From Oscillospiraceae bacterium (lineage in GTDB: Bacteria; Bacteroidota; Bacteroidia; Bacteroidales; WCHB1-69): a DNA stretch of 64,000 bases. Below are positions 1,857-24,138 of this stretch, in pieces. The position numbers and the translations under genes are program-made. The notes beneath the pieces are model-generated. The model was not told the DNA's origin. It made no database searches and saw nothing but the letters and a program-made list of their open reading frames with translations. Every line of letters starts with the position of its first letter. Position 1 is the first letter of the stretch. The DNA is taken from assembly GCA_963620035.1 (NCBI GenBank), contig CAVEXN010000003.1:36374-100373 (forward strand). Reading direction: 5' to 3'.

Positions 1857-3089
1857 TTATTTCAGATTCTCAATGGCCTGTTTTATACGGCGGCAAGCCT
1901 CTTTGAGTTTGTCCTCCGAGGTGGCGTAAGAGAGACGGATGCAGTCGTCGTCGCCAAAAGCGCTGCCTTGCACCGTAGAGACTTCGGCATCAAGCAGAAT
2001 ATAGAATGCCAAGTCTTTGGAATCCTCAATGACGGTTTTTCCATACTCTTTGGCAAACTGGGAATCGGCGGGCACATTTTTACCGAAAATGCTCTTGACC
2101 TTCGGGAAGAAATAGAATGCGCCGTCGGGCATGCAGACCTCAAAACCCGGGATTTCTTTAAGCAAGCCAAATACAAGGTCGCGTCTCTTCTTGAACGTTT
2201 CGCGCATTGTGGTAATCGCTTCCGACTGTTTGGGGTCGATCTGCATGGCGCGCAGGGCGGCACGCTGTGAGATGGAACCTGTGGCCGACGTGATCTGTCC
2301 TTGCATCTTGCCGCAAGCCTTGGCAATCTCGAGCGGTGCGCCGATGAAACCGATACGCCAGCCCGTCATGGCATAACCCTTGGATACTCCGTTGACGGTT
2401 ACCACCTGGTCTTTGATGAAATCGAACTGGGCAATGCTCTCATGACCGCCTATAAAGTTGATGTGCTCGTATATTTCGTCTGAAAGGATGACCATCTGTG
2501 GATGTTTCTTCACCACTTCTGCAATGGCACGCAACTCCTCTTTGGAGTAAATCATTCCCGTTGGGTTGGACGGGCTGCTGAAAATCATCATTTTTGTGTT
2601 TGGCGTGATGGCGGCTTCCAGTTGGGCGGCCGTTATCTTGAAACTGTTTTCGATCTTGGCCTGCAAAAAGACACATTTTGCGCCGGCCATCTCCGCAATG
2701 GCCTTGTAAGAAACCCAGTAAGGCGTGGGAATAATCATCTCTTCGCCGGGGTTCACCAATGACATCACCACCTGATAGATGGCTTGCTTTCCGCCCGTGG
2801 ACACGACAATCTGGCCGGGCGCATAGTCGAGACCGTTGTCTCTTCTGAACTTCTCACTTACCGCCTTCAACAGGTCTGCATAGCCGGGGACTGGAGGATA
2901 ATGCGTGAAATTGTCGTCGATCGATTGTTTGGCGAACTCCTTGATGCAGTCAGGAGTGTTGAAGTCGGGTTCTCCGATACTCAGGCTAATCACATCTTTG
3001 CCATGATCTTTCATCTCACGGGCCAATGCAGTCATAGCCAAAGTCTCAGATGCTGCCATTTCCGTAACTCTCTTTGAAAGTCTTTCCAT
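1857..3089 (-). CDS. Class I/II pyridoxal-phosphate aminotransferase (aspartate aminotransferase-like)
   Basis: 410 aa with a PLP-lysine context 'SKGYAMTGWRIGF', plus 'SNPTGMIY' and 'PYWVSY'. Confidence 0.9.
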   Translation of the reverse strand: MERLSKRVTEMAASETLAMTALAREMKDHGKDVISLSIGEPDFNTPDCIKEFAKQSIDDNFTHYPPVPGYADLLKAVSEKFRRDNGLDYAPGQIVVSTGGKQAIYQVVMSLVNPGEEMIIPTPYWVSYKAIAEMAGAKCVFLQAKIENSFKITAAQLEAAITPNTKMMIFSSPSNPTGMIYSKEELRAIAEVVKKHPQMVILSDEIYEHINFIGGHESIAQFDFIKDQVVTVNGVSKGYAMTGWRIGFIGAPLEIAKACGKMQGQITSATGSISQRAALRAMQIDPKQSEAITTMRETFKKRRDLVFGLLKEIPGFEVCMPDGAFYFFPKVKSIFGKNVPADSQFAKEYGKTVIEDSKDLAFYILLDAEVSTVQGSAFGDDDCIRLSYATSEDKLKEACRRIKQAIENLK

Positions 3090-3410
3090 AATTATATTGT
3101 AGTTTTTTTATTATAATAATTGTATTTATCTGTACGTCAAGTTTTTGAAAAAACTTTTTGATTTCTAACGCCGCGGCAAAGGTAGGAAAAATAGTGTCAC
3201 AGAATCATCAGGGAAAGAAAAGTGCCATGTCTTGAATAATATCGATACATTTTCGTCAAAAACTTCATTTTTTTTTCTACTCTGCAGGTCGAAATCTACG
3301 GCCCTCTTTCTTTTCAAGTCGTATTTTTTATTATATATTATTGATTGACAACAGATTAAAAAAACCAATAAAAAAAATATCCTGTCAGTACAACAAAGAC
3401 AAAATAATTA

Positions 3411-3418
3411 TAATTTTG
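3411..3418 (+). promoter_or_regulatory. Candidate -7 promoter box TAATTTTG upstream of rex
   Basis: Matches TAnnTTTG, 30 nt upstream of the rex ATG. It is the only such box I found ahead of the rex-adh-hyd series. Confidence 0.5.
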
Positions 3419-3448
3419 CCACGGTTTAAATAGATAAAAAAATACCGA

Positions 3449-4129
3449 ATGAAGGCGCGGATAGACAAGTCACTGGTAGTATTGAAATCGACATTGAGCC
3501 GGCTTCCATTGTATTACAGCATTTTATGCAAACTTCGGCATGATGGGGAAGCCAACGTGTCGGCATCTGTCATTGCAAAGAAACTGAACCTCAACCAAGT
3601 GTTGGTGCGCAAGGACTTGTCGAGTGTCAGCAGCGAGGCCGGCACGCCACGTGTCGGGTTCAAGGTTGAGCGCCTCTACGAGGACATCAGCAACTTTTTG
3701 GGATACCGCAACGTGGAAGAGGCCGTGCTGGTCGGGGTGGGAAGTCTTGGGCATACACTACTTTCATATAGCGGTTTCCAGAACTTCGGGCTCTCCATTG
3801 TAGCAGGTTTCGACAACGACGAGAACCTAAACGGCATCAAGGTCAATGGCAAACCTATTTTGCCTATGGAAAAAATGGCAAACCTCGTGCGGCGCATGAA
3901 AATCAGGATAGCCATCATCGCGGTGCCTCAAGACCAGGCGCAGATGGTGTGCGACCAATTGGTGCGCGCCGGCATTCAGGCTATCTGGAACTTTGCCCCT
4001 GTCTCGTTAGACGTCACACCCGACATTCTTGTGAAGAACGAGAACCTGGCCGCCTCGCTTGCGCTGCTTTCGCACAAATTGAGCCAGAAAATGAAAAAAA
4101 CAGAGAAACAGCAAAACTGGACACTATAA
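3449..4129 (+). CDS. rex: Redox-sensing transcriptional repressor Rex
   Basis: 226 aa with an N-terminal winged-helix region ('RLPLYYSILCKL...VSASVIAKKL') and a Rossmann domain 'GVGSLGHTLL'. Confidence 0.85.
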   Translation: MKARIDKSLVVLKSTLSRLPLYYSILCKLRHDGEANVSASVIAKKLNLNQVLVRKDLSSVSSEAGTPRVGFKVERLYEDISNFLGYRNVEEAVLVGVGSLGHTLLSYSGFQNFGLSIVAGFDNDENLNGIKVNGKPILPMEKMANLVRRMKIRIAIIAVPQDQAQMVCDQLVRAGIQAIWNFAPVSLDVTPDILVKNENLAASLALLSHKLSQKMKKTEKQQNWTL

Positions 4130-4159
4130 ACATAAAATAAACCCTTAAGCATAAAAAAA

Positions 4160-5377
4160 ATGAAAAGATTCACATTGCCGAGAGATTTGTACCATGGTGA
4201 AAATGCGCTCCAAGCGCTGAAGACCTTTACCGGAAAACGTGCCGTGGTCTGCGTTGGCGGCGGAAGCATGAAACGTTTCGGGTTTCTTGACAAAGCCGTC
4301 TCTTACCTTCAGGAAGCCGGTATGGAAGTCCGACTCATCGAAGGCATTGAGCCGGATCCTTCCGTTCAAACCGTCATGAAAGGGGCCGCAGTAATGCAGG
4401 AGTTCCAACCCGACTGGATTGTGGCCATCGGCGGCGGCTCCCCTATCGATGCAGCCAAAGCCATGTGGATAAAATACGAATATCCTGACACCACCTTTGA
4501 AGATATGTGCAAAGTGTTCGGACTGCCGAAACTGAGAACCAAAGCCAAATTCTGCGCCGTCTCTTCCACGTCAGGCACCGCTACCGAGGTGACCGCTTTT
4601 TCCATCATCACCGACTACGAGAAAGGCATCAAATTCCCGATAGCCGATTTTGAGATCACGCCCGACGTGGCCATAGTTGACCCCGCGCTGGCCCAGACTA
4701 TGCCCCAAAAACTGGTCGCCCACACGGGCATGGATGCCATGACACACGCCATCGAGGCCTATGTGTCCACCGCAAACTGCGACTATACCGACCCCTTGGC
4801 GCTCTATGCCATCAAAATGATACAACGCGACCTCATCAACTCCTACAAAGGCGACACGGAGGCTCGCAACGAGATGCACAACGCACAATGTCTGGCCGGC
4901 ATGGCTTTCTCCAATGCGCTGCTCGGCATCGTTCACTCTATGGCACATAAGACCGGCGCCGCCTTTGCCGACTTTGGAGCTCACATCATCCATGGCGCCG
5001 CCAACGCCATGTATCTGCCTAAAGTAATCGCTTTCAACGCTAAAGACCCTGTCGCGCTGAAACGTTACGGCATCATTGCCGACGAGATGAAACTCGGCGG
5101 AAACACCGATGAGGAAAAGGTTCGCCTGCTCATCGCCGAACTACGGAAGATGAACGATGAACTCAACATTCCCCAATGCATCCAAAACTATGGCGCCGAC
5201 TCCTATCCCTGCGAGTATGGCTTCGTCCCCGAGAATGTCTTTCTCGAAAGACTTCCCGAAATAGCCGGAAACGCTATTGCCGACGCCTGCACGGGCTCCA
5301 ACCCCAGAATACCGTCTCAAAACGAGATGGAAGAGCTGCTGAAATGCTGCTACTATGACTCGGATGTTACTTTCTAA
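4160..5377 (+). CDS. Iron-containing (group III) alcohol dehydrogenase
   Basis: 405 aa with 'GGGSPIDAAKAM' and metal-binding His motifs ('THAIEAY', 'HSMAHKTG'). Confidence 0.9.
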   Translation: MKRFTLPRDLYHGENALQALKTFTGKRAVVCVGGGSMKRFGFLDKAVSYLQEAGMEVRLIEGIEPDPSVQTVMKGAAVMQEFQPDWIVAIGGGSPIDAAKAMWIKYEYPDTTFEDMCKVFGLPKLRTKAKFCAVSSTSGTATEVTAFSIITDYEKGIKFPIADFEITPDVAIVDPALAQTMPQKLVAHTGMDAMTHAIEAYVSTANCDYTDPLALYAIKMIQRDLINSYKGDTEARNEMHNAQCLAGMAFSNALLGIVHSMAHKTGAAFADFGAHIIHGAANAMYLPKVIAFNAKDPVALKRYGIIADEMKLGGNTDEEKVRLLIAELRKMNDELNIPQCIQNYGADSYPCEYGFVPENVFLERLPEIAGNAIADACTGSNPRIPSQNEMEELLKCCYYDSDVTF

Positions 5378-5401
5378 ATACTATATTATTTGACAATTAG
5401 C

Positions 5402-5487
5402 GTCAATGGCTGCGGGCATCCCCTGTTTACAACTTGTTTTCTCACATTGCTCATAATGACTATAGCCTGCGGCCATTGACCTTTTTG
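5402..5487 (+). terminator. Long-range stem (16-nt arms, 2 mismatches, ~47-nt loop) followed by CTTTTTG; possible conditional terminator between adh and the hyd genes
   Basis: GTCAATGGCTGCGGGC (5402-5417) pairs with GCCTGCGGCCATTGAC (5465-5480), and a T-run follows. Confidence 0.4.
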
Positions 5488-5507
5488 ATTGAATTGCAAT
5501 TAATCAA
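5485..5507. promoter_or_regulatory. 23-bp near-perfect palindrome TTGATTGAATTGCAATTAATCAA (candidate operator)
   Basis: Read from the sequence, 32 nt upstream of the 5539 ATG. There is one mismatch between the arms. Confidence 0.35.
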
Positions 5508-5538
5508 CAACATAAAAACATAACAACAGCAACAATCT

Positions 5539-5826
5539 ATGAATATTAAAGTTTGCGTCGGCAGTTCCTGCCATCTGAAAGGCTCTTACGAAGTCATTGA
5601 AGTCTTCAAGGAAATCATAAAGAAATACGATGTTGAAGACCTTGTCGAATTGCAGGCAAGTTTCTGCCTCGGACATTGCGCCACGGGCGTAACCGTAAAA
5701 GCCGACGGCTGGGACAAGCCGACCGTAGAAAAACTGGGTGCAGACGAGTTGTTATTACACAACGTGAACAAGGACAATGCGGAAGAACTGTTCGCAAAAC
5801 AGATCTATCCGATGCTTAACCTCTAA
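5539..5826 (+). CDS. Thioredoxin-like [2Fe-2S] ferredoxin (NuoE/HndA-type fold)
   Basis: 95 aa. Cys pattern C6-x4-C11-x31-C43-x3-C47 ('VCVGSSCHLKG...FCLGHC'). Confidence 0.75.
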   Translation: MNIKVCVGSSCHLKGSYEVIEVFKEIIKKYDVEDLVELQASFCLGHCATGVTVKADGWDKPTVEKLGADELLLHNVNKDNAEELFAKQIYPMLNL

Positions 5827-5838
5827 CGGCCCCGTTTT

Positions 5839-7551
5839 ATGACAAATTTTTTGGAATTGCGAAACGCCCGGTGCAAGGATTGCTACCGGTGCTTACGGGA
5901 ATGCCCCGTTAAAGCCATCAGATTCAAGGGACATCAGGCAGAGATTATTGAAGACCGCTGCATTCTGTGCGGCCACTGCACGCTGATCTGTCCACAGAAC
6001 GCTAAAGTCGTACACAGCGAACTCGACAATGTCAAGGCACTGCTCAACAATACAGACAAGGTTATTGCCAGTGTCGCCCCCTCGTATATCTCCAGTTTTG
6101 GCCTCAAAGATTTTTCAGTTATGAAACTGGCGTTGGCCAAAGTCGGGTTCTATGATGCCGAAGAAACGGCCGTAGGCGCTCAACTTGTGACGGAAGAGTA
6201 TGCTAAACTGCTGAGAACCGGCGAGTTTGAGAACTTCATCACCTCCGCCTGCCCTGCAACCTGCCGTATGATCCAGGAATACTACCCCAAGGCACTCAAA
6301 TATCTTGCCCCGGTGGACTCTCCAATGGTAGCACACGCCAAAATCCTCAAGAAACAATACCCCGAAGCCAAGGTTGTCTTCATCGGACCTTGCATTGCCA
6401 AAAAACGCGAAGCCGAAGAGAGCGAAATCATCGAGAATGTGCTCACTTTTGAGGACTTGGACCTGCTGTTTGAGGAGAAGAACATCAAACTGGACGAAAT
6501 CACCCACGTTGCCATCGGGGGCAAGAAAGACGAGGCACCGAATACTGCAAAAGAATACCCTATCAACCAAGGGATTATCAACTCTTTCAAGGAACTTCCG
6601 ACCGGCTATGAATACATTGCCATCGACGGTCCGAAAAAATGCGTGGAGGCCTTGAGCAACATCGAGTACCTGTCGCACGTATTTCTGGAAATCAACCTCT
6701 GTGTGGACGGCTGCGTGAGCGGTCCTTGTTCTTTGGCAAAAGAGGGCGGCTGCGTGAGAGCCACTGCAGAGATCAGAGAGTATGTGAAGAGAGAACGCGA
6801 AAAAGGCAGTTCCATCGCTCCGGCCGCACTTCCCGAGGTCAGCCTCACTGCCGCACACCAGCGCATACGTAGCCACAGCCTGCCGGCCAGCGAACGCGAC
6901 ATAGAAGCCATCCTCCACAAGACCGGCAAGATGAAACCCGAGGATGAACTGAACTGCGGTGCGTGCGGCTACGCAACCTGCCGCGAAAAGGCCTGGGCCG
7001 TCTATAACGGCTACGCCGACATCGAAATCTGCCTGCCCTATATGCGCCAACGCGCCGAGTCGCTCTCCTACGAGATTATCCAAAACAGCCCCGAAGGCAT
7101 CATCGTGCTCGACTCCGACATGAACATTGTGGACCTCAACAGCAAAGGACGCGAACTGCTCGGCATCGATGACCCTAACGCCAAAGGACGTCCCGCCATC
7201 GATTTCTTCAATCCGCTTGATTTCTGCAACGCCTACAACAAGAAATGCCACATAGACTGCGAGCAGATGTATGTCCACTCTTCCGGCAAATATGTCAACC
7301 TCTCCATCAACTACCTCCAAGGTCAAAATGTGCTGTTCGGCATCATGAAAGACATTACCGAAGATGTCAACTACGAGGACCAGATCAAGAAAGTGAAGAT
7401 GGAAACCTTGTCCACAACGGACGAAGTCATCAAGAAACAGATGCGTGTGGCACAGGAGATCGCTTCCCTCTTGGGCGAAACTACCGCCGAGACGAAAGTG
7501 GCTCTGCTTAAGCTGAAAAAAACGTTAACCGACGAAAAACCGGCGCAATAA
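5839..7551 (+). CDS. hydS: Sensory-type [FeFe]-hydrogenase-like protein with a C-terminal PAS domain (HydS-like, putative group C)
   Basis: 570 aa. Two ferredoxin motifs (CKDCYRCLRECP, CILCGHCTLICP). H-domain motifs 'TSACPATC', 'GPCIAKK', 'LCVDGCVSGP'. An extra Cys cluster 'CGACGYATC...C'. A PAS-like segment 'EIIQNSPEGIIVLDSDMNIVDLNSKGRELLGI'. Confidence 0.8.
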   Translation: MTNFLELRNARCKDCYRCLRECPVKAIRFKGHQAEIIEDRCILCGHCTLICPQNAKVVHSELDNVKALLNNTDKVIASVAPSYISSFGLKDFSVMKLALAKVGFYDAEETAVGAQLVTEEYAKLLRTGEFENFITSACPATCRMIQEYYPKALKYLAPVDSPMVAHAKILKKQYPEAKVVFIGPCIAKKREAEESEIIENVLTFEDLDLLFEEKNIKLDEITHVAIGGKKDEAPNTAKEYPINQGIINSFKELPTGYEYIAIDGPKKCVEALSNIEYLSHVFLEINLCVDGCVSGPCSLAKEGGCVRATAEIREYVKREREKGSSIAPAALPEVSLTAAHQRIRSHSLPASERDIEAILHKTGKMKPEDELNCGACGYATCREKAWAVYNGYADIEICLPYMRQRAESLSYEIIQNSPEGIIVLDSDMNIVDLNSKGRELLGIDDPNAKGRPAIDFFNPLDFCNAYNKKCHIDCEQMYVHSSGKYVNLSINYLQGQNVLFGIMKDITEDVNYEDQIKKVKMETLSTTDEVIKKQMRVAQEIASLLGETTAETKVALLKLKKTLTDEKPAQ

Positions 7552-8711
7552 TGGAACTTTGTCTTGAATATGGCTGTACCTCGCTGAACCATTACGGGGA
7601 GGAACTGTGCGGCGACAATGTGGCCCGCAGCGTCAACGGCAACTATACCACGTTGGTGCTGGCCGACGGGCTCGGCAGCGGGGTGAAAGCAAACATCCTC
7701 TCTACCCTCACTTCCAAGATTCTGTGTACCATGGCCTCCAACGACATCGATATGTACGAATGCGTGGAGACGATTATACAAACCCTTCCCGTGTGCAAGG
7801 AGCGCGGCGTGGCCTACTCCACCTTTTCCGTCATCCATGTCAACACGGAAGGAAAAGGATTCCTGTTCGAGTTCGACAACCCACAGGCCATCTATTACCA
7901 CAACGGCAAGTGCTGCGACTTTGAACGCACCGAACTCTCCATCTGCGACAAACAAGTGTTCCGCTCCGAACTGGAACTCGAAGAAAACGATATTGTAATC
8001 GTGATGTCTGACGGCACCATCCATGCCGGCGTCGGCATGATTCTCAACTTCGGTTGGGAACGCCCGCAGATTATGGAACATCTCGACACGAATGTCACTT
8101 CCGACATGTCGGCACGGGCAGTGGCCTGCCTTCTTGCATCGGCCTGCAACGACCTTTACCTCGACAAGCCCGGCGATGACACGACGGTAGCCGCCGTGAA
8201 AATCCGAAAAAGACAAGATGTCCATATCATGGTAGGCCCTCCCGTGGACAAAAACAAAGACGACTTCTATGTGGGCCGTTTTATGGAGGGAGACTCCCTG
8301 AAAATCGTATGCGGCGGCACCAGCTCGCAAATCGTGGCCCGCTATCTGAAAACGGATCTCAAAACCAGCTTCGATTTTCCAGACAAGGACGTGCCGCCCA
8401 TCGGATATATCAAGGGGGTTGACTTGACCACCGAAGGCGTACTTACCCTCCGCCGGCTGCTCGAACTCTCGGAAAAATACCTGTCTATACAAGACCTCAC
8501 ACCCAAAGTGTTCACAAAAAAAGACGGAGCCTCCTTGCTGGCCGAATTCCTCTTTGAGAAAGGCACCCACATCACGTTCTTTGTCGGACAGAGTGTAAAT
8601 GCCGCACACCAAGGTCTTCCTATCGATACCACGATGAAACTGAAACTTGTAGAGAAACTGGCCCACAACCTCCAAATTATGGGCAAAGTGGTGGAACTTA
8701 ATTATGATTGA
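7551..8711 (+). CDS. PP2C/SpoIIE-family serine phosphatase with an uncharacterised ~170-aa C-terminal domain
   Basis: 386 aa with 'ELCGDNV', 'VLADGLGSGVKA', 'VIVMSDGTIHAG', 'DDTTVAAVKI'. The start overlaps the hydS stop (TAATG). Confidence 0.8.
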   Translation: MELCLEYGCTSLNHYGEELCGDNVARSVNGNYTTLVLADGLGSGVKANILSTLTSKILCTMASNDIDMYECVETIIQTLPVCKERGVAYSTFSVIHVNTEGKGFLFEFDNPQAIYYHNGKCCDFERTELSICDKQVFRSELELEENDIVIVMSDGTIHAGVGMILNFGWERPQIMEHLDTNVTSDMSARAVACLLASACNDLYLDKPGDDTTVAAVKIRKRQDVHIMVGPPVDKNKDDFYVGRFMEGDSLKIVCGGTSSQIVARYLKTDLKTSFDFPDKDVPPIGYIKGVDLTTEGVLTLRRLLELSEKYLSIQDLTPKVFTKKDGASLLAEFLFEKGTHITFFVGQSVNAAHQGLPIDTTMKLKLVEKLAHNLQIMGKVVELNYD

Positions 8712-10192
8712 TTCGATTTTTAATCTTTATAATAATGGACAACACAACAAGAATTTTTGACACTAACGTTCAACTCGTCAAATACAGAGTTCTCAAAGAG
8801 GTCATCAGAAGAGCATACGAGGGAGGGCTTGAGAACGCCTATATGGAGATACCGAAACTGATCAGTCCGGGACCGAAACCCGAAACCCGATGTTGTATCT
8901 ATAAAGAACGCGCCATCATCCAAGACCGCATTCAAGTGGCTATGGGCGGCGACAAGGAGAACCCCAATGTCATAGAGGTCATTGACAGCGCCTGCGACGA
9001 ATGTCCCATCGACGGCATCTATGTAACCCCGGCCTGCCGCGGATGCCTGGTACACAACTGCAAAGAGGTTTGTCCGAAAGATGCCATCACTATCGTCAAC
9101 CATAAGGCTGTGGTGGACAATGAGAAGTGCATAGAATGCGGCAAATGTACCAAAGCCTGCCCCTATACCGCCATCATCCTCCAACACCGCCCCTGTATGG
9201 TCAGCTGCAAGGTGAAAGCCATCTCTATGGACGAGAACCGCAAGGCGAAAATAGACAACAGCAAGTGCATATCATGCGGTGCCTGTGTTTACAAATGCCC
9301 GTTCGGCGCCATTTCAGACAAGTCGCTCGTTCTCGACATCGTGGACATCCTGAAAAAGTCAGAGAACAACACCAAATACAGAGTCTATGCCGTCATTGCC
9401 CCGGCTATCGTTAGCCAATGCCGTTTCGGCAGAGTGACACAAGTTGTTACCGCCATCCGGAAATTAGGTTTCCATCAAGTGGTAGAGGCCGCCCTCGGCG
9501 CAGACATCACCCTCTACCATGAGGTCAAGGAGTGGAGCGAAAAGAAAATGCTGACCACCTCGTGTTGCCCTTCGTTTGTGGCTTTCATTGAAAAGAACTT
9601 TCCTACCCTGAAACAATACGTTTCCTCTTCGGTTTCGCCTATGGTTCAGACCGCCCGGCTCATCAAACACTCTGACCCTACCGCAAAGGTCGTGTTCATC
9701 GGGCCCTGCAGTTCCAAGAAAATGGAATACCGGCTTCCGAAGACCGACGGTATGGTTGACAGTGTGATGTCTTTTGAAGAGTTGCAGGCCTTTATGGATG
9801 CCCGCGGCATCGACACGGCCGCACAAGAAGACACCGAACTGAACAACGCCTCTTTTTATGGCCGCATCTTCGCAAAGTCCGGCGGCATTACGCAAGGTGT
9901 AACGGACGTGGCCAAAGACATGGGCATCGACGGCCTGAAACCTGTTGTCATGAACGGCATTGAAGAGTGCAAACTCAACCTGCTCAAACTCAAGGTGGGC
10001 AAAGCTGCCGAAAACTTCTTCGAGGGTATGGCCTGCGACGGCGGCTGCCTCAACGGACCGCTTTGCATTACCCATAGTCCCAGAAATGTGGTGGATGTGG
10101 AAAAATACGGCAACGAAGCCAAGGAACGCACCATCTACAACTCCGTAAGGCTGTATGACCTGAACAAGGAGAATGACAAAAAACAAGAATAA
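8708..10192 (+). CDS. hydA: Catalytic [FeFe]-hydrogenase (ferredoxin-domain plus H-cluster domain)
   Basis: Canonical H-cluster motifs 'TSCCPSFV', 'GPCSSKKME', 'MACDGGCLNGP'. Two 4Fe-4S motifs (CIECGKCTKACP, CISCGACVYKCP). The start is either 8708 (ATGA overlap) or, perhaps more likely, the ATG at 8735 (MDNTTRIF...). Confidence 0.85.
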   Translation: MIRFLIFIIMDNTTRIFDTNVQLVKYRVLKEVIRRAYEGGLENAYMEIPKLISPGPKPETRCCIYKERAIIQDRIQVAMGGDKENPNVIEVIDSACDECPIDGIYVTPACRGCLVHNCKEVCPKDAITIVNHKAVVDNEKCIECGKCTKACPYTAIILQHRPCMVSCKVKAISMDENRKAKIDNSKCISCGACVYKCPFGAISDKSLVLDIVDILKKSENNTKYRVYAVIAPAIVSQCRFGRVTQVVTAIRKLGFHQVVEAALGADITLYHEVKEWSEKKMLTTSCCPSFVAFIEKNFPTLKQYVSSSVSPMVQTARLIKHSDPTAKVVFIGPCSSKKMEYRLPKTDGMVDSVMSFEELQAFMDARGIDTAAQEDTELNNASFYGRIFAKSGGITQGVTDVAKDMGIDGLKPVVMNGIEECKLNLLKLKVGKAAENFFEGMACDGGCLNGPLCITHSPRNVVDVEKYGNEAKERTIYNSVRLYDLNKENDKKQE

Positions 10193-10194
10193 CA

Positions 10195-10776
10195 ATGCAA
10201 GACAACAACTATCAACAACATATAATTATTTTCGGAGCACCCGGCGCCGGAAAGGGAACCCATGCCGACCTGATGGCCAAACGATATGACATGGTACATC
10301 TTTCTACGGGAGACCTGCTGCGCAAGGAGGTTGCAGAACAAACCCCACTCGGACAGTTTGTACAAAAAGAACTGGACCAAGGGAATCTTGTTGCTGATGA
10401 AATCGTGATTGAAATGGTAGAAAAGGCCATCACCGGCACAGACCGCAACTGTATTCTCGACGGTTTTCCGAGAACGGTGGCACAAGCCAAAGCCCTCGAT
10501 GAAATGATGAGACGCACAGGACAGCATATCCGCTGCGTGCTCTCTATCGAGGTGCCGCGCGAGGAACTCATTCTCCGTCTCGAACAACGTTCGCTGATTT
10601 CGCACCGCTCTGATGACAACGAGGCGACAATCCTGCACCGCCTCATCGAATACGAAACAAAAAGCAAAAACGTCATCGATTACTACAAGGCCGACGGACG
10701 ACTGGTGCCTGTTGACGCTTCAGACTCTATAGAAAACACTCAGAAAAATATCCGCAATGCCTTGTCTCTGTTGTAA
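10195..10776 (+). CDS. adk: Adenylate kinase (short-lid type)
   Basis: 193 aa with 'GAPGAGKGT', 'LSTGDLLR', 'GFPRTVAQA', 'RSDDNEATILHRL'. Starts 2 nt after the hydA stop. Confidence 0.92.
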   Translation: MQDNNYQQHIIIFGAPGAGKGTHADLMAKRYDMVHLSTGDLLRKEVAEQTPLGQFVQKELDQGNLVADEIVIEMVEKAITGTDRNCILDGFPRTVAQAKALDEMMRRTGQHIRCVLSIEVPREELILRLEQRSLISHRSDDNEATILHRLIEYETKSKNVIDYYKADGRLVPVDASDSIENTQKNIRNALSLL

Positions 10777-10817
10777 AGAATAAAACAACGTTTATAAATC
10801 GACAAAAAGCAAATGCT

Positions 10818-13088
10818 ATGTTTACTGTTGTAAAGAAAATTGAGTTCAAAGGTGATACCTATCAGATGGATATCACGGCATCCCGTCTGGCCCAATCCGC
10901 CCTGCCGGGGCAGTTCCTGATTGTCAAGTCGACCCCTAATGCCGAACGCATTCCGCTGACCATTGCCGATTATGACAGAACGAAAGGTACCGTTACGATT
11001 GTCTTCAAAGCCGTCGGAGAGTCAACACGCAAAATAGCCCGGTTCAACACCGGCGATTCTTTCTGCGACGTTGCCGGTCCTCTTGGCAACCCTTCTGAAC
11101 TGGTGAAGATGTCAGACGAAGAGTTGCGCCAGCACCGCATGGTCTTCATTGGCGGCGGCGTGGGCATCGCCCCCATCTATCCGCAAGTGAAATGGCTGCA
11201 CGGCCACGGCGTCACTGCCGACTGCATCATAGGATCCCGCACCAAAGAACTGCTCATTTTCGAAAAAGAACTCCGAAGCGTCAGCAACCTGTATGTCACC
11301 AGCGATGACGGCTCCGTGGGGCGCAAGGGCGTGGTTACAGACGTGCTGCGCGATCTCGTGGCCCAAGGTCACCACTATGATACCATGGTGGCTATCGGTC
11401 CTATGATTATGATGAAATTTGCAACCCTCACCGCCACAGAACTTGGCATCAGGAGCATCGTCTCCCTCAACTCCATAATGGTAGATGGCACCGGCATGTG
11501 CGGCGCATGCCGCGTGTCTGTAGCCGGAAAAACCAAGTTCACCTGCGTAGACGGCCCCGAATTCATCGGTACAGACATTGACTTTGACGAGGCCATGAAA
11601 CGGCAGGCCATGTACCAACATGTTGAGACCCGCAAACAACTCGAACAAGCCGAAATAGAAGAGGGGCACCAATGCTTTATCGGAGGAATCAGCGAGGAGA
11701 CATTCGACAAGCACCACAGAGTACCGGTACTCGAACAGAAACCTGAAGTCAGAGCCAAGAATTTTGAGGAGGTGTGCTTGGGCTACAATGCCGAAGAAGC
11801 CATGAGAGAGGCCCAACGCTGCCTTAACTGCAAAGACCCGCAATGCGTGAAAAGCTGCCCCGTGAATGTCCGAATCCCGGCTTTTATTCGTGAAATCAAA
11901 CAAGGGAACTTTGAAGAAGCCGCCCGCATCATAAGTCTGGATTCTGCCCTTCCGGCAGTTTGCGGCCGTGTTTGTCCGCAAGAGTCCCAGTGCGAAGGCA
12001 GTTGCGTGATGGGAAAGAAGTTCGATTCCGTCGCTATCGGCAAACTGGAACGCTTTGTAGGCGACTGGGGTATCGCACATGACATCACCTTTGAACACAA
12101 GGTGGCCAAAAACGGGCACAAGGTGGCCATCATCGGGAGCGGTCCTTCAGGACTTACCTGCGCCAAGGATTTGCTGGCAAAAGGCTACGATGTAACGATA
12201 TTTGAAGCTCTCCATGAGTTCGGCGGCGTGCTGGTATATGGCATCCCCTCTTTTAGGCTTCCCAAGGATACGGTAGTAAAGAAAGAGGTAGAGAGTGTGC
12301 AGCGTTTGGGTGCGCGTTTTGAGAAAGATGTAGTAGTCGGCCGCACGATGTCTATCGATGACCTGCTCAACAAAGAGGGTTTTGATGCTGTCTTCATTGG
12401 CACCGGAGCCGGTTTCCCGCGTTTCATGAACATTCCGGGAGAAAACAGCTGCGGCGTAGTCTCTGCCAACGAGTTTTTGACCCGCAACAACCTGCTGTTT
12501 TCTTACAAGAAAGGCTACGACACGCCTAACTATATTGGCAAGCGGGTTGCAGTAGTTGGCGGCGGCAATGTGGCCATGGATGCAGCCCGTACCGCATTGC
12601 GTTTGGGTGCGGACGTGCATATTGTCTATCGCCGTTCCGAAAAAGAGTTGCCTGCCAGAGCCGAGGAGGTTCACCACGCCAAAGAGGAAGGCATCGTCTT
12701 CAATCTTTTGTGCAACCCCGTCCGGGTACTTGCAGATGAAAACGGATGGGTCAAAGGCCTTGAATGTGTCAGAATGGAACTCGGCGAACCCGACGCCTCG
12801 GGCAGAAGAAGTCCTGTAGCCGTAGAAGGTTCTGATTTTGTGATAGATGCCGATATGGTCATTATGGCACTGGGTACATCGCCCAATCCGCTGATACGAA
12901 GCACTACTCCACACCTTGACACCGACCGCAAAGGCTGCATCACGACCGACGAGAACGGGCAAACCTCTCGCAAGGGAGTATTTGCCGGCGGCGATGCCGT
13001 GAGCGGTGCAGCTACCGTCATCTTGGCAATGGGGGCGGGCAAAAAGGCCGCTCAAGCCATCGACGAGATGCTGTCAAAAGCGGAATGA
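10818..13088 (+). CDS. Fused NfnA-like (FAD/NAD, [2Fe-2S]) and NfnB/GltD-like (2x[4Fe-4S], FAD, NADPH) oxidoreductase
   Basis: 756 aa. The N-terminal part is PyrK/NfnA-like ('GGGVGIAPI', 'GTGMCGACRV'). The C-terminal part is GltD-like ('CLNCKDPQCVKSCP', 'VAIIGSGPSGLTCA', 'VAVVGGGNVAMDAA'). Confidence 0.8.
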   Translation: MFTVVKKIEFKGDTYQMDITASRLAQSALPGQFLIVKSTPNAERIPLTIADYDRTKGTVTIVFKAVGESTRKIARFNTGDSFCDVAGPLGNPSELVKMSDEELRQHRMVFIGGGVGIAPIYPQVKWLHGHGVTADCIIGSRTKELLIFEKELRSVSNLYVTSDDGSVGRKGVVTDVLRDLVAQGHHYDTMVAIGPMIMMKFATLTATELGIRSIVSLNSIMVDGTGMCGACRVSVAGKTKFTCVDGPEFIGTDIDFDEAMKRQAMYQHVETRKQLEQAEIEEGHQCFIGGISEETFDKHHRVPVLEQKPEVRAKNFEEVCLGYNAEEAMREAQRCLNCKDPQCVKSCPVNVRIPAFIREIKQGNFEEAARIISLDSALPAVCGRVCPQESQCEGSCVMGKKFDSVAIGKLERFVGDWGIAHDITFEHKVAKNGHKVAIIGSGPSGLTCAKDLLAKGYDVTIFEALHEFGGVLVYGIPSFRLPKDTVVKKEVESVQRLGARFEKDVVVGRTMSIDDLLNKEGFDAVFIGTGAGFPRFMNIPGENSCGVVSANEFLTRNNLLFSYKKGYDTPNYIGKRVAVVGGGNVAMDAARTALRLGADVHIVYRRSEKELPARAEEVHHAKEEGIVFNLLCNPVRVLADENGWVKGLECVRMELGEPDASGRRSPVAVEGSDFVIDADMVIMALGTSPNPLIRSTTPHLDTDRKGCITTDENGQTSRKGVFAGGDAVSGAATVILAMGAGKKAAQAIDEMLSKAE

Positions 13089-13136
13089 TGCACACACTAT
13101 GTTGTTATATTTTTCCCAAGACACCTTCCAATATCC

Positions 13137-13175
13137 AAAAGTGCAGACTTCACTATCATGAAGTCTGCACTTTTT
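13137..13175. terminator. Bidirectional intrinsic terminator between convergent genes
   Basis: AAAA GTGCAGACTTCA ctatca TGAAGTCTGCAC TTTTT. The stem is a perfect 12 bp, flanked by an A-run and a T-run. Confidence 0.8.
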
Positions 13176-13203
13176 CCGTAAGCCCCGGCAATCCGAAGCC
13201 TTA

Positions 13204-14946
13204 TTACTTTGCTTCTATATTGCTGCCGCAGTCATTGACAATCATTTTGTACCACTCGTCGCGGTAACGCGGCTGGTCCGGAAATTCACACTGCGGAACC
13301 GTCGTGCCCGTAACCTTGAATTTGCCGTTCTCTTCTTTCTTGACGTTACCGTCGTTGTATTTGACTAAAAGGTAAATGAAGAGGTCATTCCACTCTTTGC
13401 AGACATTGCGCGAAGCCTGGGCCGAGTATGCGTTGAGTTCTTGGCGGGCTTTCTCCGGTTGGCTGTTGCAGAGTGTCTTCATCCGGTCTGTCATATCATC
13501 GATGTCTTTCAGGAATTTGGTTTCCCAGTAAGTCTGTTTTTCGTTCACATGCTTAATCATGTCACAATAACGGGAATAGACAAAGTTGCTGACTTTAGTA
13601 AAAGTCCAGAAGGCAGCGGTGTTAGAGTATTCCGTCATAGAGCCGTTTCCCTCGGCAAATTCCATCGGGATACGGTCAATGCCGCAAAACATCGGGACAT
13701 AGCATGACGATGCAGCATCGTCAACACCGAACCAGAAAATACCGCCAAACCAGTCGGGCAGCCAACTGCGGCATTGAGCCACAAAGGAGAACCCTGTCTG
13801 TTGCGTAGCGGTAGCCCTTTCGTGCAGGTATTCTTTGCCGTTCAGTTCCCAGTTCATAGGACGCCAGCGGTAGGGGCATTTGAAAGGTCCTGCGCCCAGG
13901 TCGTTGGTCATGTCCATCGTTGTCCCTTCGTAATGGTCGCGCATAGCGGCCATCATAAAGCGGGCATCGATCTTGCTCTTGTCGGCGGGCTTCACCCACA
14001 ACGGGAAGCGGTGTGAGAGGTTGTCGCCACGGGCATAATCTTCATACTGTGCCATTTCAGAAGGGTTACAACGATTGAAGAAAGCCCAGACACGAGCTTC
14101 GCAGCCGCGGGCACCGCCAAAAGTAATGGGATTGTAGGCATCGCAGAAACTGAATTTGGCATCGGGTGCATCTTTCGGATAAAGTCCTTTCAGTTTGGCA
14201 AACGATACGACATCGTAGGCATAGACGGTTTCTACCGTGGGCAAGAAAATCTTGTTCAGTTCCTTGCTGGTGATGGAAGTCTTGCCGTCCCGCAGCGGGA
14301 ATGTCGTAATACGCGACTGGTTGGCGTGTCCGCTGACATAGCCGTCAGGGATGCGGCGGGCCACCCACACGGCGCCGTTGCTCCAGCCTTTCACGATTTT
14401 GCCTTTTGCATCAACCATCTTCTCGCCTTTGCCGATGAGGTCCATAACCCAAGCCTCGTTAGGGTCAATGATGGAAAATGACTCGCCCTCGCTGGCATAG
14501 CCGTATGTGTCAAGCAATTCTGCCATCACCTTGATGGCTTCACGGGCGTTCTTGGCACGCTGCAGCGTAATGTAAATCAGGGAACCGTAGTCGATGAGAC
14601 CCTGTCCGTGCATCAATTCCTCAATGCCGCCGTAGGTAGTCTCGCCAATGGCTAACTGCCATTCGTTCATATTGCCCACAACAGAGTAAGTGTGAGACAC
14701 TTGGGGAATTTGCCCAAGCAATTTTCCCGTATCCCATTCCACAATGTCCATCATGGCACCGGCAGGATAATCCTTGGCAGGGCGGTAATAGAGTTCGCCG
14801 TACAGGGTATGCGAGTCGGCGGCGTAGGTCAAGAAGCATGAGCCGTCTTTGCTGGCTCCTTTCGTGACGATGAAATTAGTGCATGCCAATGCAGCCTCTG
14901 CGGCCACAAGGCAGCACAATACAGATAGTAAAAATGCTTTTTTCAT
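13204..14946 (-). CDS. C69-family dipeptidase (secreted)
   Basis: Signal peptide MKKAFLLSVLCCLVAAEAALA followed by the nucleophile context 'CTNFIV'. I trimmed the ORF-track start (15012) to the ATG at 14946, because the upstream extension overlaps the preceding gene. Confidence 0.85.
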   Translation of the reverse strand: MKKAFLLSVLCCLVAAEAALACTNFIVTKGASKDGSCFLTYAADSHTLYGELYYRPAKDYPAGAMMDIVEWDTGKLLGQIPQVSHTYSVVGNMNEWQLAIGETTYGGIEELMHGQGLIDYGSLIYITLQRAKNAREAIKVMAELLDTYGYASEGESFSIIDPNEAWVMDLIGKGEKMVDAKGKIVKGWSNGAVWVARRIPDGYVSGHANQSRITTFPLRDGKTSITSKELNKIFLPTVETVYAYDVVSFAKLKGLYPKDAPDAKFSFCDAYNPITFGGARGCEARVWAFFNRCNPSEMAQYEDYARGDNLSHRFPLWVKPADKSKIDARFMMAAMRDHYEGTTMDMTNDLGAGPFKCPYRWRPMNWELNGKEYLHERATATQQTGFSFVAQCRSWLPDWFGGIFWFGVDDAASSCYVPMFCGIDRIPMEFAEGNGSMTEYSNTAAFWTFTKVSNFVYSRYCDMIKHVNEKQTYWETKFLKDIDDMTDRMKTLCNSQPEKARQELNAYSAQASRNVCKEWNDLFIYLLVKYNDGNVKKEENGKFKVTGTTVPQCEFPDQPRYRDEWYKMIVNDCGSNIEAK

Positions 14947-14977
14947 ATAATTGTTTAATTGTTTATTTTTGATGCGT

Positions 14978-16825
14978 TTATCGTTTTTTCCTGGGGGTTT
15001 TGAATGGCTCATTGCCGAAAGAGTAGGAGATGCCGGCCATTACATTGATGCCGAAATTGTTGAACGCATAATATTTTGAGGCATACTGGCAACCTATGTT
15101 GTTTACGGCAGCCCATGCGGTGAACTGCTTGGTTATAAGGTATTCGAACCCGACACCGAAGTTGAGTATCGGTTTAACTTCTCTTTTGCCGTCTTCGTTT
15201 TTCCTAAGGTCGTTCTCGGCACGATACGAGGCTATGTAAGTGTCCCCGTTCTCGTCGGTGGAGGTCTGCGGCACAAGTGCCCACCGGCCAAAGCCGACTT
15301 GCGCATTCAAGTCGAATACGAATTTTTGATTGAATATGTAGCGGCCGTCGAAGCCGATTGTCCACGAGGGTTTATACCATGCGTGTTCCGGATGCTCCGT
15401 GCCGTTGTTGAAATAATAGCCGTTGTAACTCGCATTGAGGTTCAAAAGCAAGTGGTCAACCGTCTCCCAATTCAAGTTGGCGCAGACATTCAGCACGCTT
15501 GCCTTTTCAGCGTAAGTGACATCAAACTGGTTTTTCAACAGGCTGTTGGTGTCAAGTACAAAGAACGGAAGGTCTCGTACATACGAATAACGGGCCGAGA
15601 TGTGGTAATTCAGCTTCTTGACGATGTTGCCCTTGATGCCGCCGTATATGCTTACCTGAGTTTTGGTGAAGCGTAGGCTGTCAAGGTTCGGTTTTACGTA
15701 AGGGTTCTCGTAGAGGAGGTCCTGCAGGGAATTGTATTCGGATTTTCCGTCCACGCCAGCATATAGGCTCAACAGTCCGCGTACAAGCCCCAACTGAAGT
15801 TCGGCTATGGGATAGACCGGGCATTGGGCTTTGCCGCTCGACACGATGACGGGCACTCCGACACCGGCCAAGATATGGTACTCTTTTATGGTGAAATTCA
15901 TAGCAGGGCGAAACTCCATCTTAAAAGAATTGTCCGCCCTCCTGACGGTACGGGGATTGTTGACCTCTGTGCCGACAACGATAGAATCGCCCCAAGTGTT
16001 GTTGTGATAGTCAAAATTGAAATCCAACTGGTAATGCTGGTATCCTGAAATCTTCAGGAACCGGGTGTCGTATGCTACAAAAGCGCTCACTCCGGCGGTG
16101 TGCTCCATATCCTTGTGACGGGTATGGATAAAGTCGTAGTGCAGTCGCACGTCCTCTTTCACCCGCTTGTCTTCCACCGTATAGTTTGAGCGGATGCCGG
16201 CGTTGAAGTAAACATGGTGGAAACTGTTGCGGATGCTGTCACGGTAACTTTTTTCGTAATAGGAAGAATCAATGCCCCAGTTTCTGTTGTATCCATAGAG
16301 ATTTGCCAGTTCGTGGTTATAGCCGACGGAAGAGTAGAAAGTATAGTTTTTGAAATATCTGTTCAAGAAAAGGTGGGTACGGGTGTCGCTCGTCGGGGCG
16401 TATGCGTATTGTTTCTGTATTTTTCCGACAGGCTCTGCCCAAGAGGAGAAATGGTGGAAGTTGAGTCCGTACGAGAACTTGCTGTTGCGGGTGTTGTGTA
16501 CCGACAACTCCGCAAGCGGTGTTATAGGATACCCGAACCCGACTTTGAGATAGTTCCGGTAATAGCGTTCTTGGAACTCGGGGTTGAATTTGCTGACATC
16601 GATACGGGTTGGAGAGAAAGTGAGTTCGGGTTTCTGCGGAGAGATGGTGTATTTGAAAACCACTTTTTTGTGGACCGTATCGACGATGTCCGCCTGCCGG
16701 TTTATTTTTGAGGCATTGGTAAGTTTGGGCACATAATTGATCAGCAGATGTGCCGAGTCCACACTTTGGGCTCGGAGGGCGGCTGCGCAGGTCATGGCAA
16801 CTGCCAACAGAACGATGCGGTTCAT
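14978..16825 (-). CDS. Putative outer-membrane beta-barrel protein (Porin_10-like, uncharacterised)
   Basis: Signal peptide MNRIVLLAVAMTCAAALRAQ, aromatic/Gly/Asn-rich alternating pattern and a C-terminal '...GISYSFG' beta-strand. The family assignment is from memory and is not verified. Confidence 0.5.
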   Translation of the reverse strand: MNRIVLLAVAMTCAAALRAQSVDSAHLLINYVPKLTNASKINRQADIVDTVHKKVVFKYTISPQKPELTFSPTRIDVSKFNPEFQERYYRNYLKVGFGYPITPLAELSVHNTRNSKFSYGLNFHHFSSWAEPVGKIQKQYAYAPTSDTRTHLFLNRYFKNYTFYSSVGYNHELANLYGYNRNWGIDSSYYEKSYRDSIRNSFHHVYFNAGIRSNYTVEDKRVKEDVRLHYDFIHTRHKDMEHTAGVSAFVAYDTRFLKISGYQHYQLDFNFDYHNNTWGDSIVVGTEVNNPRTVRRADNSFKMEFRPAMNFTIKEYHILAGVGVPVIVSSGKAQCPVYPIAELQLGLVRGLLSLYAGVDGKSEYNSLQDLLYENPYVKPNLDSLRFTKTQVSIYGGIKGNIVKKLNYHISARYSYVRDLPFFVLDTNSLLKNQFDVTYAEKASVLNVCANLNWETVDHLLLNLNASYNGYYFNNGTEHPEHAWYKPSWTIGFDGRYIFNQKFVFDLNAQVGFGRWALVPQTSTDENGDTYIASYRAENDLRKNEDGKREVKPILNFGVGFEYLITKQFTAWAAVNNIGCQYASKYYAFNNFGINVMAGISYSFGNEPFKTPRKKR

Positions 16826-16878
16826 GTTTCGGGTATGAATTATCTTGGCGTTATTGTTCATTGCTTCGGGCTTGAAAA

Positions 16879-23211: not shown

Positions 23212-24138
23212 ATGTCAAAAAACTACTTCCAACGTTACATCTGGCTCATTGAATTCATCGACAGGCGCAAGTATGCCAGTTTTAATGAAATCAGCAACGC
23301 CTGGATGCGCAGCAGGCTCAACCCGGCGGGAGAACGGCTCTCCGAACGCACCTTTTTCAACCACAAGGCCGCCATTGCCGACGACTTCGGCATTGAAATC
23401 AAAAACGACCGGACCCTGGGCTATTATATTGACGAGAACAGCATTGGTGACGAATCAATAGGCAAATGGATGCTGCAAGCACTCTGCATGAACAATATAC
23501 TGCGCGAAAATGCGGATATGAAAAAATTCATCCTCTTCGAAAAAACACACTCTGACGACAATTTCCTTGTTGAAATTCTCACGGCTATCCGCAACTGTCA
23601 TAAAATAAGCCTCGTTTATCAGACGTTTAGTGAGACTATAGCCACAAGCCGTATTATCAGCCCCTATTGCATAAAGTATTTCAAAAAACGCTGGTATATG
23701 CTCGGTCTTGCCGAAAACGACGGCCTGAAAGTCTATGCGTTGGATCGTTTCCAAGATATGGAAGAACTGGACGAGACCTTTACCCTCCCTGCCGGATTTG
23801 ACGCGGAAGCGTATTTCAGCAACTTTTACGGAATATGGGTTTTTGAATCGGCTCCGCCCGTTGAAATCCGCCTGAAAGTACCGGAATACCGGGCTAAATA
23901 TCTGCACAAACTCCCCCTCCACCACAGCCAAAGGGAAGAGCCGCTCGGTGACGGATATGCCATCTTCACATACCTTATGGTTCCCACTCCGGATTTTGAA
24001 AGCGAATTGCTGAGCCTTAGAGAGGTTGAGGTGCTGGAACCTAAAACGTTTCGAGACCACATTGCAGGAGTTATCAGCAAAATGAATGACATATACAAAA
24101 AGAAACAGCGGCACTCATCCCCCAGAAAAGGCATATAG
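23212..24138 (+). CDS. WYL-domain transcriptional regulator-like protein
   Basis: 308 aa with an N-terminal wHTH-like region. The central segment 'KKRWYMLGLAENDGLKVYALDRFQDMEELDETF' is typical of WYL domains. Confidence 0.7.
   Translation: MSKNYFQRYIWLIEFIDRRKYASFNEISNAWMRSRLNPAGERLSERTFFNHKAAIADDFGIEIKNDRTLGYYIDENSIGDESIGKWMLQALCMNNILRENADMKKFILFEKTHSDDNFLVEILTAIRNCHKISLVYQTFSETIATSRIISPYCIKYFKKRWYMLGLAENDGLKVYALDRFQDMEELDETFTLPAGFDAEAYFSNFYGIWVFESAPPVEIRLKVPEYRAKYLHKLPLHHSQREEPLGDGYAIFTYLMVPTPDFESELLSLREVEVLEPKTFRDHIAGVISKMNDIYKKKQRHSSPRKGI

Follow-up and report, generated by a model that had tools for sequence, protein, structure and literature searches.

Introduction

How a hydrogen signal could be passed on from a sensory-type [FeFe] hydrogenase that is encoded beside a phosphatase, and with no kinase in the vicinity, is the question raised by an eight-gene cluster at positions 3449-13088 of a 64,000-nucleotide stretch of a Bacteroidales genome (assembly GCA_963620035.1, contig CAVEXN010000003.1, positions 36,374 to 100,373), which is referred to in its full length as the window. 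For putative sensory [FeFe] hydrogenases, recent papers call for the identification of the interaction partners. An initial annotation of this DNA had described an arrangement headed by the redox repressor gene rex and had regarded the lack of a partner kinase as an anomaly that known models do not explain. The comparisons presented here lead to a different view: the locus very likely belongs to the known type of hydS/hfs fermentation-control cluster and is a Bacteroidales form distinguished by an alcohol dehydrogenase (ADH)-only gene, a single ferredoxin-like gene, the lack of a kinase, and the addition of an adenylate kinase gene (adk) and a fused nfnAB gene. Clusters of the Ruminococcus albus type are widespread in rumen and gut Bacteroidales, whose phylum is now recognised as a major gut H2 producer via group B hydrogenases (PMC12578642). 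The kinase-less layout of the window is the usual state among related loci.

Gene content of the cluster

The eight co-directional genes that had been proposed are all present on the forward strand, and the listing of open reading frames (ORFs) and the family scans agree that they carry the expected domains. The first gene, rex (3449-4129), encodes an NADH/NAD+-sensing repressor (NF003994, 265 bits with a cut-off of 130; Put_DNA-bind_N and CoA_binding domains) in which both the GxGxxG motif and the winged helix-turn-helix (HTH) are found. It is followed by the gene for an iron-containing alcohol dehydrogenase (adh, 4160-5377; Fe-ADH and ADH_Fe_C domains), which represents the ADH half of AdhE only and matches residues 456-868 of the AdhE model; in relatives, a full AdhE is encoded at this position. 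The third gene (fdx, 5539-5826) occupies the HfsA position and encodes a thioredoxin-like [2Fe-2S] protein of 95 aa with a PF01257 match and the cysteine pattern Cx4C...Cx3C. This small protein is the counterpart of the R. albus fdx products and shares 53% identity with R. albus Fdx2 over 57 aa. The fourth gene, hydS (5839-7551), encodes a HydS/HfsB-type putative H2-sensing [FeFe] hydrogenase of 570 aa, composed of two Fer4 domains, the H-domain, an FeS domain (PF04060) and a PAS domain, and is joined to the gene of an HfsC-type PP2C phosphatase of the SpoIIE family (7551-8711; 386 aa; PF07228 over aa 31-218). Next, the counterpart of HfsD/HydA2 is a group B monomeric [FeFe] hydrogenase (hydB, 8735-10192; TIGR04105, 538.8 bits with a cut-off of 450). 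Its catalytic H-cluster motifs TSCCP and MACDGGC are both kept, and the enzyme is presumed to be ferredoxin-dependent and H2-evolving; it passes the NCBIfam group B1 model and would fall in group B of the HydDB scheme. The last two genes encode a short-form adenylate kinase (adk, 10195-10776; NF001381, 201.5 bits with a cut-off of 187) and a fused NfnA-NfnB-like oxidoreductase (nfnAB, 10818-13088; PRK12778; NF009414, 1105.4 bits with a cut-off of 1103), whose DHODB_Fe-S_bind, Fer4_20 and Pyr_redox_2 domains make up an NfnA-like FAD/[2Fe-2S] module and an NfnB-like GltD module, the activity being predicted from sequence.

The tiny or overlapping junctions noted in the initial annotation were likewise recovered. 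From rex to nfnAB the junctions measure 30, 161, 12, -1, 23 (or -4), 2 and 41 nt. The hydS stop and the PP2C start share the sequence TAATG, an overlap of 1 nt, and the spacing between PP2C and hydB depends on the start codon of the latter. The most likely start is the ATG at 8735, which leaves 23 nt and yields a product of 485 aa, as called in the sister contig L082; the alternative TTG at 8708 would create a 4-nt overlap. Judging from its housekeeping flanks, the locus is probably chromosomal.

Comparison with characterized clusters

The closest described system, found via a plasmid collection, is located on pRUMAL01 of R. albus 7 and reads rex-adhE-phosphotransferase-fdx-fdx-hydS-PP2C-hydA2 (Zheng et al. 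2014; Greening et al. 2019). Gene order and orientation are shared with the window, and hydS and the PP2C gene overlap in both. Counterparts align over their full length, with identities of 39% for HydS (over 573 alignment columns), 45% for PP2C (C-terminal domain included), 53% for HydA2 and 43% for Rex, whereas the ADH of the window aligns with the ADH half of AdhE only (35%). In contrast to R. albus, the window lacks an APH-family kinase gene, has a single fdx gene where R. albus has two, and encodes the ADH alone in place of bifunctional AdhE; it adds adk and the fused nfnAB, a canonical Rex box was not found in it, and it is probably part of a Bacteroidales chromosome, whereas the R. albus cluster resides on a Clostridia plasmid. 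An H2 consumer that holds H2 at a low level reduces expression of the eight-gene R. albus cluster 111-fold (PMC6776011).

The same four-gene core is present in the hfsABCD operon of Thermoanaerobacterium saccharolyticum (Shaw 2009; Eminoglu 2017), which encodes a small protein, a PAS-bearing [FeFe] hydrogenase (HfsB), a Ser phosphatase (HfsC) and a HydA2-like hydrogenase (HfsD); here, the equivalence follows the equating of Hfs with R. albus HydS/HydA2 in the papers themselves and not Hfs sequences. Unlike the cluster in the window, the hfs operon as described is not headed by rex and adh. In the papers it comprises four genes, none of them listed as a kinase, and there is genetic evidence of a regulatory role linked to alcohol dehydrogenase: deletion of hfsB raises adhE expression and ethanol yield, an effect that requires hfsC and hfsD (PMC5707799). 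In the same organism, hfsABCD is treated as encoding the subunits of the main hydrogenase, and deletion of the whole operon lowers hydrogenase activity, whereas deletion of hfsB alone raises it.

The features that define hydS/hfs clusters occur together in the window, namely a sensory-type PAS hydrogenase, an adjoining PP2C, a [2Fe-2S] protein gene on the 5' side, a ferredoxin-type hydrogenase gene on the 3' side and, as in the R. albus form, rex and ADH genes upstream. The APH kinase gene between adhE and fdx, an accessory seen in R. albus among the two described systems, is not found in the window. A partner-switching module, in which a STAS substrate and an RsbW/SpoIIAB-type kinase are encoded together with the PP2C, was not recognized among the genes of the cluster and the window ORFs of at least 180 aa.

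The sensory-type hydrogenase

Sequence criteria for sensory [FeFe] hydrogenases have been formulated (PMC8163306), and the 5839-7551 product carries the corresponding hallmarks. The proton-relay cysteine is replaced, with TSACP at aa 135-139 instead of TSCCP, and Met353 is exchanged for Gly, as in TmHydS. A GPC motif is located at aa 183-185, the C-terminal cluster motif Cx2Cx4Cx16C at aa 373-398 and the PAS domain at aa 412-514. Based on these substitutions and on the domain architecture, the protein is predicted to belong to the sensory class (M2f, or group C), in agreement with the earlier assignment. Within group C of HydDB, subgroup C3, termed 'phosphatase-linked (putative)', likewise comprises a PAS-bearing H-cluster protein that is encoded beside a Ser/Thr phosphatase (PMC5037454). 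Group-level placement is supported by the architecture, the phosphatase linkage and the identity to R. albus HydS, and assignment to C3 rather than C1 or C2 is putative, as it is made by gene context only.

The last 30-40 residues form the most conserved part of HydS across 78 loci from several phyla. This tail contains a nearly invariant C-terminal helix motif (7435-7521; tail at aa 533-561), in which the core columns are mostly at least 95% conserved, and the motif has no match in Pfam or the Protein Data Bank (PDB). By eye, the tail resembles the pattern EIA..LG......K..L of an HTH of the GerE, sigma-r4 or Fis type, which would offer a DNA-binding output; hhalign comparisons with GerE, NarL, RpoE, RpoD and Fis scored no better than those with shuffled templates, and this candidate was rejected.

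Related loci and the distribution of the kinase

Searching one genome per species yielded 80 loci at the species level, from Bacteroidota, Clostridia, Treponema, Erysipelotrichaceae and other groups. Nearly all of these loci keep the core order of [2Fe-2S] protein, hydS, PP2C and group B hydrogenase, and rex and adh or adhE are often found upstream; the rex-ADH layout occurs in L002, L005, L082, L084 and many Clostridia loci. The eight-gene layout of the window is identical in L082, a contig of a sister metagenome-assembled genome (MAG). In four loci (L009, L011, L013 and L015), a group B gene was not found 3' of the sensory module. In L001, a close relative, the group B hydrogenase at 5814-7293 is split into two frames (5814-6569 and 6565-7293), indicating either a frameshifted pseudogene or an assembly error.

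The gene annotated as 'phosphotransferase' in the R. albus cluster encodes a eukaryotic-like kinase of the APH family, and the statement in the initial annotation that this hydS locus carries a kinase is thereby borne out. A tblastn search found no homologue of it in the window, and no kinase, HATPase or STAS domain was detected in the genes of the cluster or in window ORFs of at least 180 aa (smaller ORFs outside the cluster were not scanned); to this extent, the reported absence of a kinase and of a STAS/anti-sigma partner stands. The presence of the kinase was then judged in the 59 related loci with at least 5 kb of upstream DNA. It is present in 19 of these and absent from 40, including all 15 Bacteroidota species loci, as well as from two near-identical metagenome contigs. 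The common gut form rex-adhE-fdx-hydS-PP2C-hydB (L084, L085) is also devoid of it. Among the kinase-bearing loci, 17 of 19 also have adhE (Fisher p = 4e-7), and the kinase gene lies between adhE and fdx. The APH kinase may be an accessory whose functional link is with AdhE and not with the sensor. This position was observed at L081 (6049-6798) and at 28 other loci (e.g. L007, L023 and L063).

Because the kinase is absent from 40 of the 59 loci and hfsABCD is listed without one, the kinase-less locus represents the common form and not the anomaly for which it had been taken. Nor does it pose a new puzzle of signal transduction: the same question of signal output applies to the whole sensory class, with or without a kinase. 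HydDB already contains a phosphatase-linked subgroup.

In a neighbour-joining tree of the PP2C proteins, calculated without support values, the Bacteroidota proteins and those of kinase-bearing Firmicutes share a clade, with 68-73% identity between them. These similarities suggest that the cluster was transferred between phyla and that the kinase was lost, with MAG mis-binning as another possible explanation. The PP2C of the window is 68-73% identical to proteins of some Clostridia MAGs (compared with L007, L010, L012, L014, L016, L023 and L024), 60% to that of Tidjanibacter and 70% to that of Alistipes.

The phosphatase and its C-terminal domain

The metal-binding motifs of the PP2C (D22, D39-G40, D154-G155 and D209-D210) are each invariant or at least 90% conserved among 68 diverse homologues, regardless of whether a kinase is encoded. 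With its intact active site the enzyme is presumably active, and the phosphorylation of its substrate would depend on a factor whose gene lies elsewhere. An AlphaFold2 (AF2) model reaches a predicted local distance difference test (pLDDT) score of 92, and the best PDB folds are SpoIIE, RsbU and RsbX, with the full-length fold search matching the phosphatase half only. Close homologues number in the thousands among Bacteroidales MAGs.

The remaining part is a conserved alpha/beta domain of ~165 aa (8205-8708) that has not been assigned to a family. Pfam returned nothing at E <= 10 for the C-terminal 168 aa of the window protein and scattered non-significant matches for the domain in 40 members (best E 0.0065), and a PDB sequence profile search yielded no significant match. 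The domain matches 850 clusters at 50% identity; in full-length hits it is always fused behind the PP2C domain and covers aa ~220-390 of proteins of ~390 aa, and shorter proteins containing it look like fragments. Its AF2 model (pLDDT 88) shows a weak methylglyoxal-synthase (MGS)-like match in Foldseek (E 0.01, template modelling score 0.42-0.47). Conserved motifs are GPP, CGGT(T/S) and D..TEG, and hhalign places the invariant GGT(T/S) loop onto the TGTTG phosphate-binding loop of MGS with a probability of only 14%. An MGS-like fold is tentatively proposed from the model. A kinase or STAS domain hidden in the C-terminal 168 aa was also considered; it was rejected on the Pfam, PDB profile and Foldseek results, and the domain is not a kinase.

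With respect to known signalling phosphatases, the PP2C belongs to the same SpoIIE family as Bacillus RsbP, RsbU and SpoIIE, two of which are among its best structural matches. The PAS domain upstream of the phosphatase recalls RsbP. In contrast to the RsbP, RsbU and SpoIIE systems, the PAS domain of the window is part of a separate protein, HydS, and neither a STAS substrate nor a HATPase kinase was found nearby. An MGS-like C-terminal domain is not known from RsbP, RsbU or SpoIIE phosphatases. The hydS and PP2C genes overlap or abut in 62 of 78 loci. Together with the conserved HydS tail and the C-terminal domain of the phosphatase, this suggests a HydS-PP2C complex.

Promoter, terminators and Rex operator

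A -7 box of the sequence TAATTTTG is located at 3411-3418 upstream of rex and, with its leader, spans 3411-3448. It is the only match to TAnnTTTG on the forward strand of positions 3400-13200, in which approximately three would be expected by chance. The statement that such a box precedes rex, and neither adh nor the 5539 gene, was thereby borne out. Six Bacteroidales loci retain an intergenic region before rex, and in these the box and a leader containing ..TTTAAATAGATAAAAAAATA.. are kept ~30-40 nt 5' of the ATG. Between the box and the ATG, the leader takes the form (C/G)GATTTAAATAGATAAAAAAATA(T/C)CGA in the window (3411-3448) and in L082, L084, L018, L005 and L002. This Bacteroidales leader might be an operator or a translation signal, and it differs from the canonical Rex box. 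In loci that open with fdx (L003, L004, L017, L020, L021 and L029), a clean TAnnTTTG box is found 5' of fdx. A sigma-70 promoter scan is uninformative for Bacteroidota and was set aside.

The large hairpin that had been described between adh and the ferredoxin gene is real. It is a terminator-like or attenuator element (5402-5487, forward strand) with a 16-bp stem and a 47-nt loop, followed by CUUUUUG; its arms (5402-5417 and 5465-5480) are 88% complementary, and the 161-nt spacer containing it folds with -35 kcal/mol (z = -3.6). The hairpin is also kept in the sister MAG (L082), while in L001, L002, L005 and L018 inspection by eye reveals a different GC-rich inverted repeat in each locus at the post-adh position. 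Such variation at one site is more in keeping with a terminator or attenuator than with a specific RNA element, and Rfam (E <= 1) recognized no known RNA element in the cluster, the adh-fdx spacer included. The end of the cluster is marked by a bidirectional intrinsic terminator at 13137-13174, located between nfnAB and a convergent peptidase C69 gene (13204-15012). Its perfect arms of 16 nt (13137-13152 and 13159-13174) are flanked by A and T runs, and it proved slightly longer than the 12-bp terminator initially placed at 13141-13170.

For the Rex operator, the consensus TTGTGAAnnnnTTCACAA or TTGTTAAnnnnTTAACAA was used. No match with at most three mismatches was obtained 5' of rex or fdx in the window, and the sole match in the window scan is a weak site with three mismatches downstream of nfnAB. 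A shared palindrome was also not found in the Bacteroidota upstream regions. Relatives among the Firmicutes have clear canonical Rex boxes 5' of adhE, fdx, hydB or rex, and it is conceivable that the window may use a divergent Bacteroidota Rex motif. Canonical boxes were recorded 5' of adhE in L055, L061, L063, L064, L069 and L077 and 5' of fdx in L034, L057, L072 and L075, and a perfect box (TTGTTAATAAATTAACAA) lies 43 nt 5' of hydB in L049 (6460).

Several features favor transcription of the ~9.7 kb as one unit, as the initial annotation had proposed: rex comes first, the sole -7 box precedes it, the other gaps are too short for a promoter and the sister MAG has the same eight genes. The single box permits read-through, and this part of the proposal stands. 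With no canonical Rex operator found and a terminator-like hairpin 3' of adh, a single Rex-controlled transcript is unproven. The simplest explanation would be that transcription from the rex promoter partly reads through this hairpin.

The adk and nfnAB genes

Among the loci compared, a position of adk directly 3' of hydB is shared by the window and its sister contigs L082 and L083 only, and the cluster ends at hydB in the common gut relatives L084 and L085. Nfn genes are joined to the module in two further arrangements. In L005 (Ca. Limimorpha; 5795-17534), rex-adh-fdx-hydS-PP2C is followed by split nfnA and nfnB genes and then, in place of a group B enzyme, by NuoE, NuoF and a trimeric group A hydrogenase. 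In L037 (Clostridia MAG; 2273-11697), the order is adh-nfnA-nfnB-kinase-fdx-fdx-hydS-PP2C-hydB, and the ADH is 79% identical to that of the window. The adk-nfnAB pair is thus lineage-specific, and the linkage to Nfn recurs.

That both genes are mere neighbours, placed there by chance or by insertion history and functionally untied to the hfs-like cluster, is unlikely, though it is an explanation to be reckoned with. The narrow occurrence of adk 3' of hydB, the clusters that end at hydB and the housekeeping nature of adk speak for it, whereas the gaps of 2 nt and 41 nt, free of a promoter box and with no terminator until 13137, and the fact that nfnA and nfnB are joined to the sensory module in L005 and L037, each with another gene order, speak against it. 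Nfn may plausibly be tied in function to the sensor module; for adk such a tie is doubtful.

Interpretation of the cluster

By analogy with R. albus and T. saccharolyticum, a hydS/hfs fermentation-control cluster in the window would operate as follows. Transcription would start from the rex promoter and probably read in part through the post-adh hairpin. With a build-up of H2 and NADH, the alcohol dehydrogenase as an NAD(P)H sink, the ferredoxin-only hydrogenase and Nfn, which would exchange electrons between ferredoxin, NADH and NADPH, would be made. HydS, as a slow, high-affinity enzyme, would report H2 to the PP2C via the region of the FeS, PAS and C-terminal helix elements, with both genes translationally coupled and both proteins probably in a complex. 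The PP2C would then alter the phosphorylation state of a target phosphoprotein, whose kinase would lie outside the conserved core, either encoded elsewhere or acting as a general kinase. Some points weigh against this scheme. The sensing role of group C hydrogenases is putative in every organism, as is any substrate of the PP2C. The post-adh hairpin may terminate most transcripts, and the forward-strand scan found no TAnnTTTG box 5' of fdx in the window. Additionally, neither a best-site scan 5' of every rex nor a degenerate scan of all loci detected a canonical Rex box in the Bacteroidota loci. Because an operator was found neither in the window nor in any Bacteroidota locus, the case for Rex control of the cluster comes from adjacency only.

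Other explanations assign different roles to the same proteins. The four core proteins could be the subunits of a single 'Hfs' hydrogenase, with the PP2C-like protein and HydS as structural or allosteric components that would tune the catalytic subunit directly and would not head a phosphorylation cascade controlling transcription. Such a complex, considered rather unlikely here, would agree with the treatment of hfsABCD as hydrogenase subunits in the T. saccharolyticum literature and with the effects of the deletions on activity, with the invariant gene order and the overlapping or very short junctions that are typical of complexes, with the absence of the kinase from most loci, and with the resemblance of the extra PP2C domain and the invariant HydS tail to protein-protein interfaces. 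The conservation of all metal-binding residues of the PP2C, however, argues for real catalysis, and deletion of hfsB alters adhE transcript levels. In addition, the module precedes Nfn and a trimeric group A enzyme in L005 and is not followed by a group B gene in L009, L011, L013 and L015; therefore, the sensory module is not bound to one catalytic partner. The view of the initial annotation goes further and invokes a new, kinase-independent type of signalling, with Rex, or directly the co-encoded ADH, hydrogenase or Nfn, as the target of HydS-PP2C and with a single Rex-controlled operon extending over all 9.7 kb. It draws on the lack of kinase, STAS and HATPase domains in the scanned ORFs, on rex as the only DNA-binding gene of the cluster, on the single -7 box, on the recurrent linkage to Nfn (L005, L037) and on the grouping of Bacteroidota PP2Cs with kinase-bearing Firmicutes, which suggests a lineage-specific loss of the kinase. 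This view is nevertheless very improbable: the kinase-less state is the majority form, shared by the hfs operon and not specific to the window; rex occurs in only 17 of 67 related loci, hence Rex is not an obligatory output; the Rex operator was not found and a terminator-like hairpin lies 3' of adh; and a PP2C needs a phosphorylated substrate, so that some kinase must exist.

A bolder proposal, which is regarded as improbable, is that HydS and the HfsC-type PP2C constitute an obligate two-protein H2 sensor with no dedicated kinase. The HydS helix would dock on the PP2C, and the MGS-like domain, through a GGT(T/S) loop comparable to a phosphate-binding loop, would have a phosphoprotein or a phosphorylated metabolite as its ligand, so that the pair would integrate metabolic state with the H2 level and target the co-encoded redox enzymes directly. 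In Bacteroidota, this would have become the sole mode after acquisition of the cluster from Clostridia. Three comparative leads narrow where the HydS-PP2C signalling interface may be sought: the kinase may be accessory and tied to adhE and not to the sensor, HfsC-type PP2Cs all have an unannotated C-terminal domain, and HydS ends in a nearly invariant helix.

Other features of the window

Outside the cluster, a WYL/WCX-domain regulator and a LytTR DNA-binding protein are encoded amid housekeeping genes at 23212-24138 and 26096-26914. On the reverse strand at 53435-55837, an aldehyde dehydrogenase domain and a GldB gliding-motility lipoprotein domain occur in a single ORF of 800 aa, which may represent either a real fusion or two genes read as one. 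Finally, positions 55996-63552 encode a very large secreted or surface protein of 2518 aa with many FN3 repeats, BNR and MAM domains and a T9SS C-terminal sorting domain.

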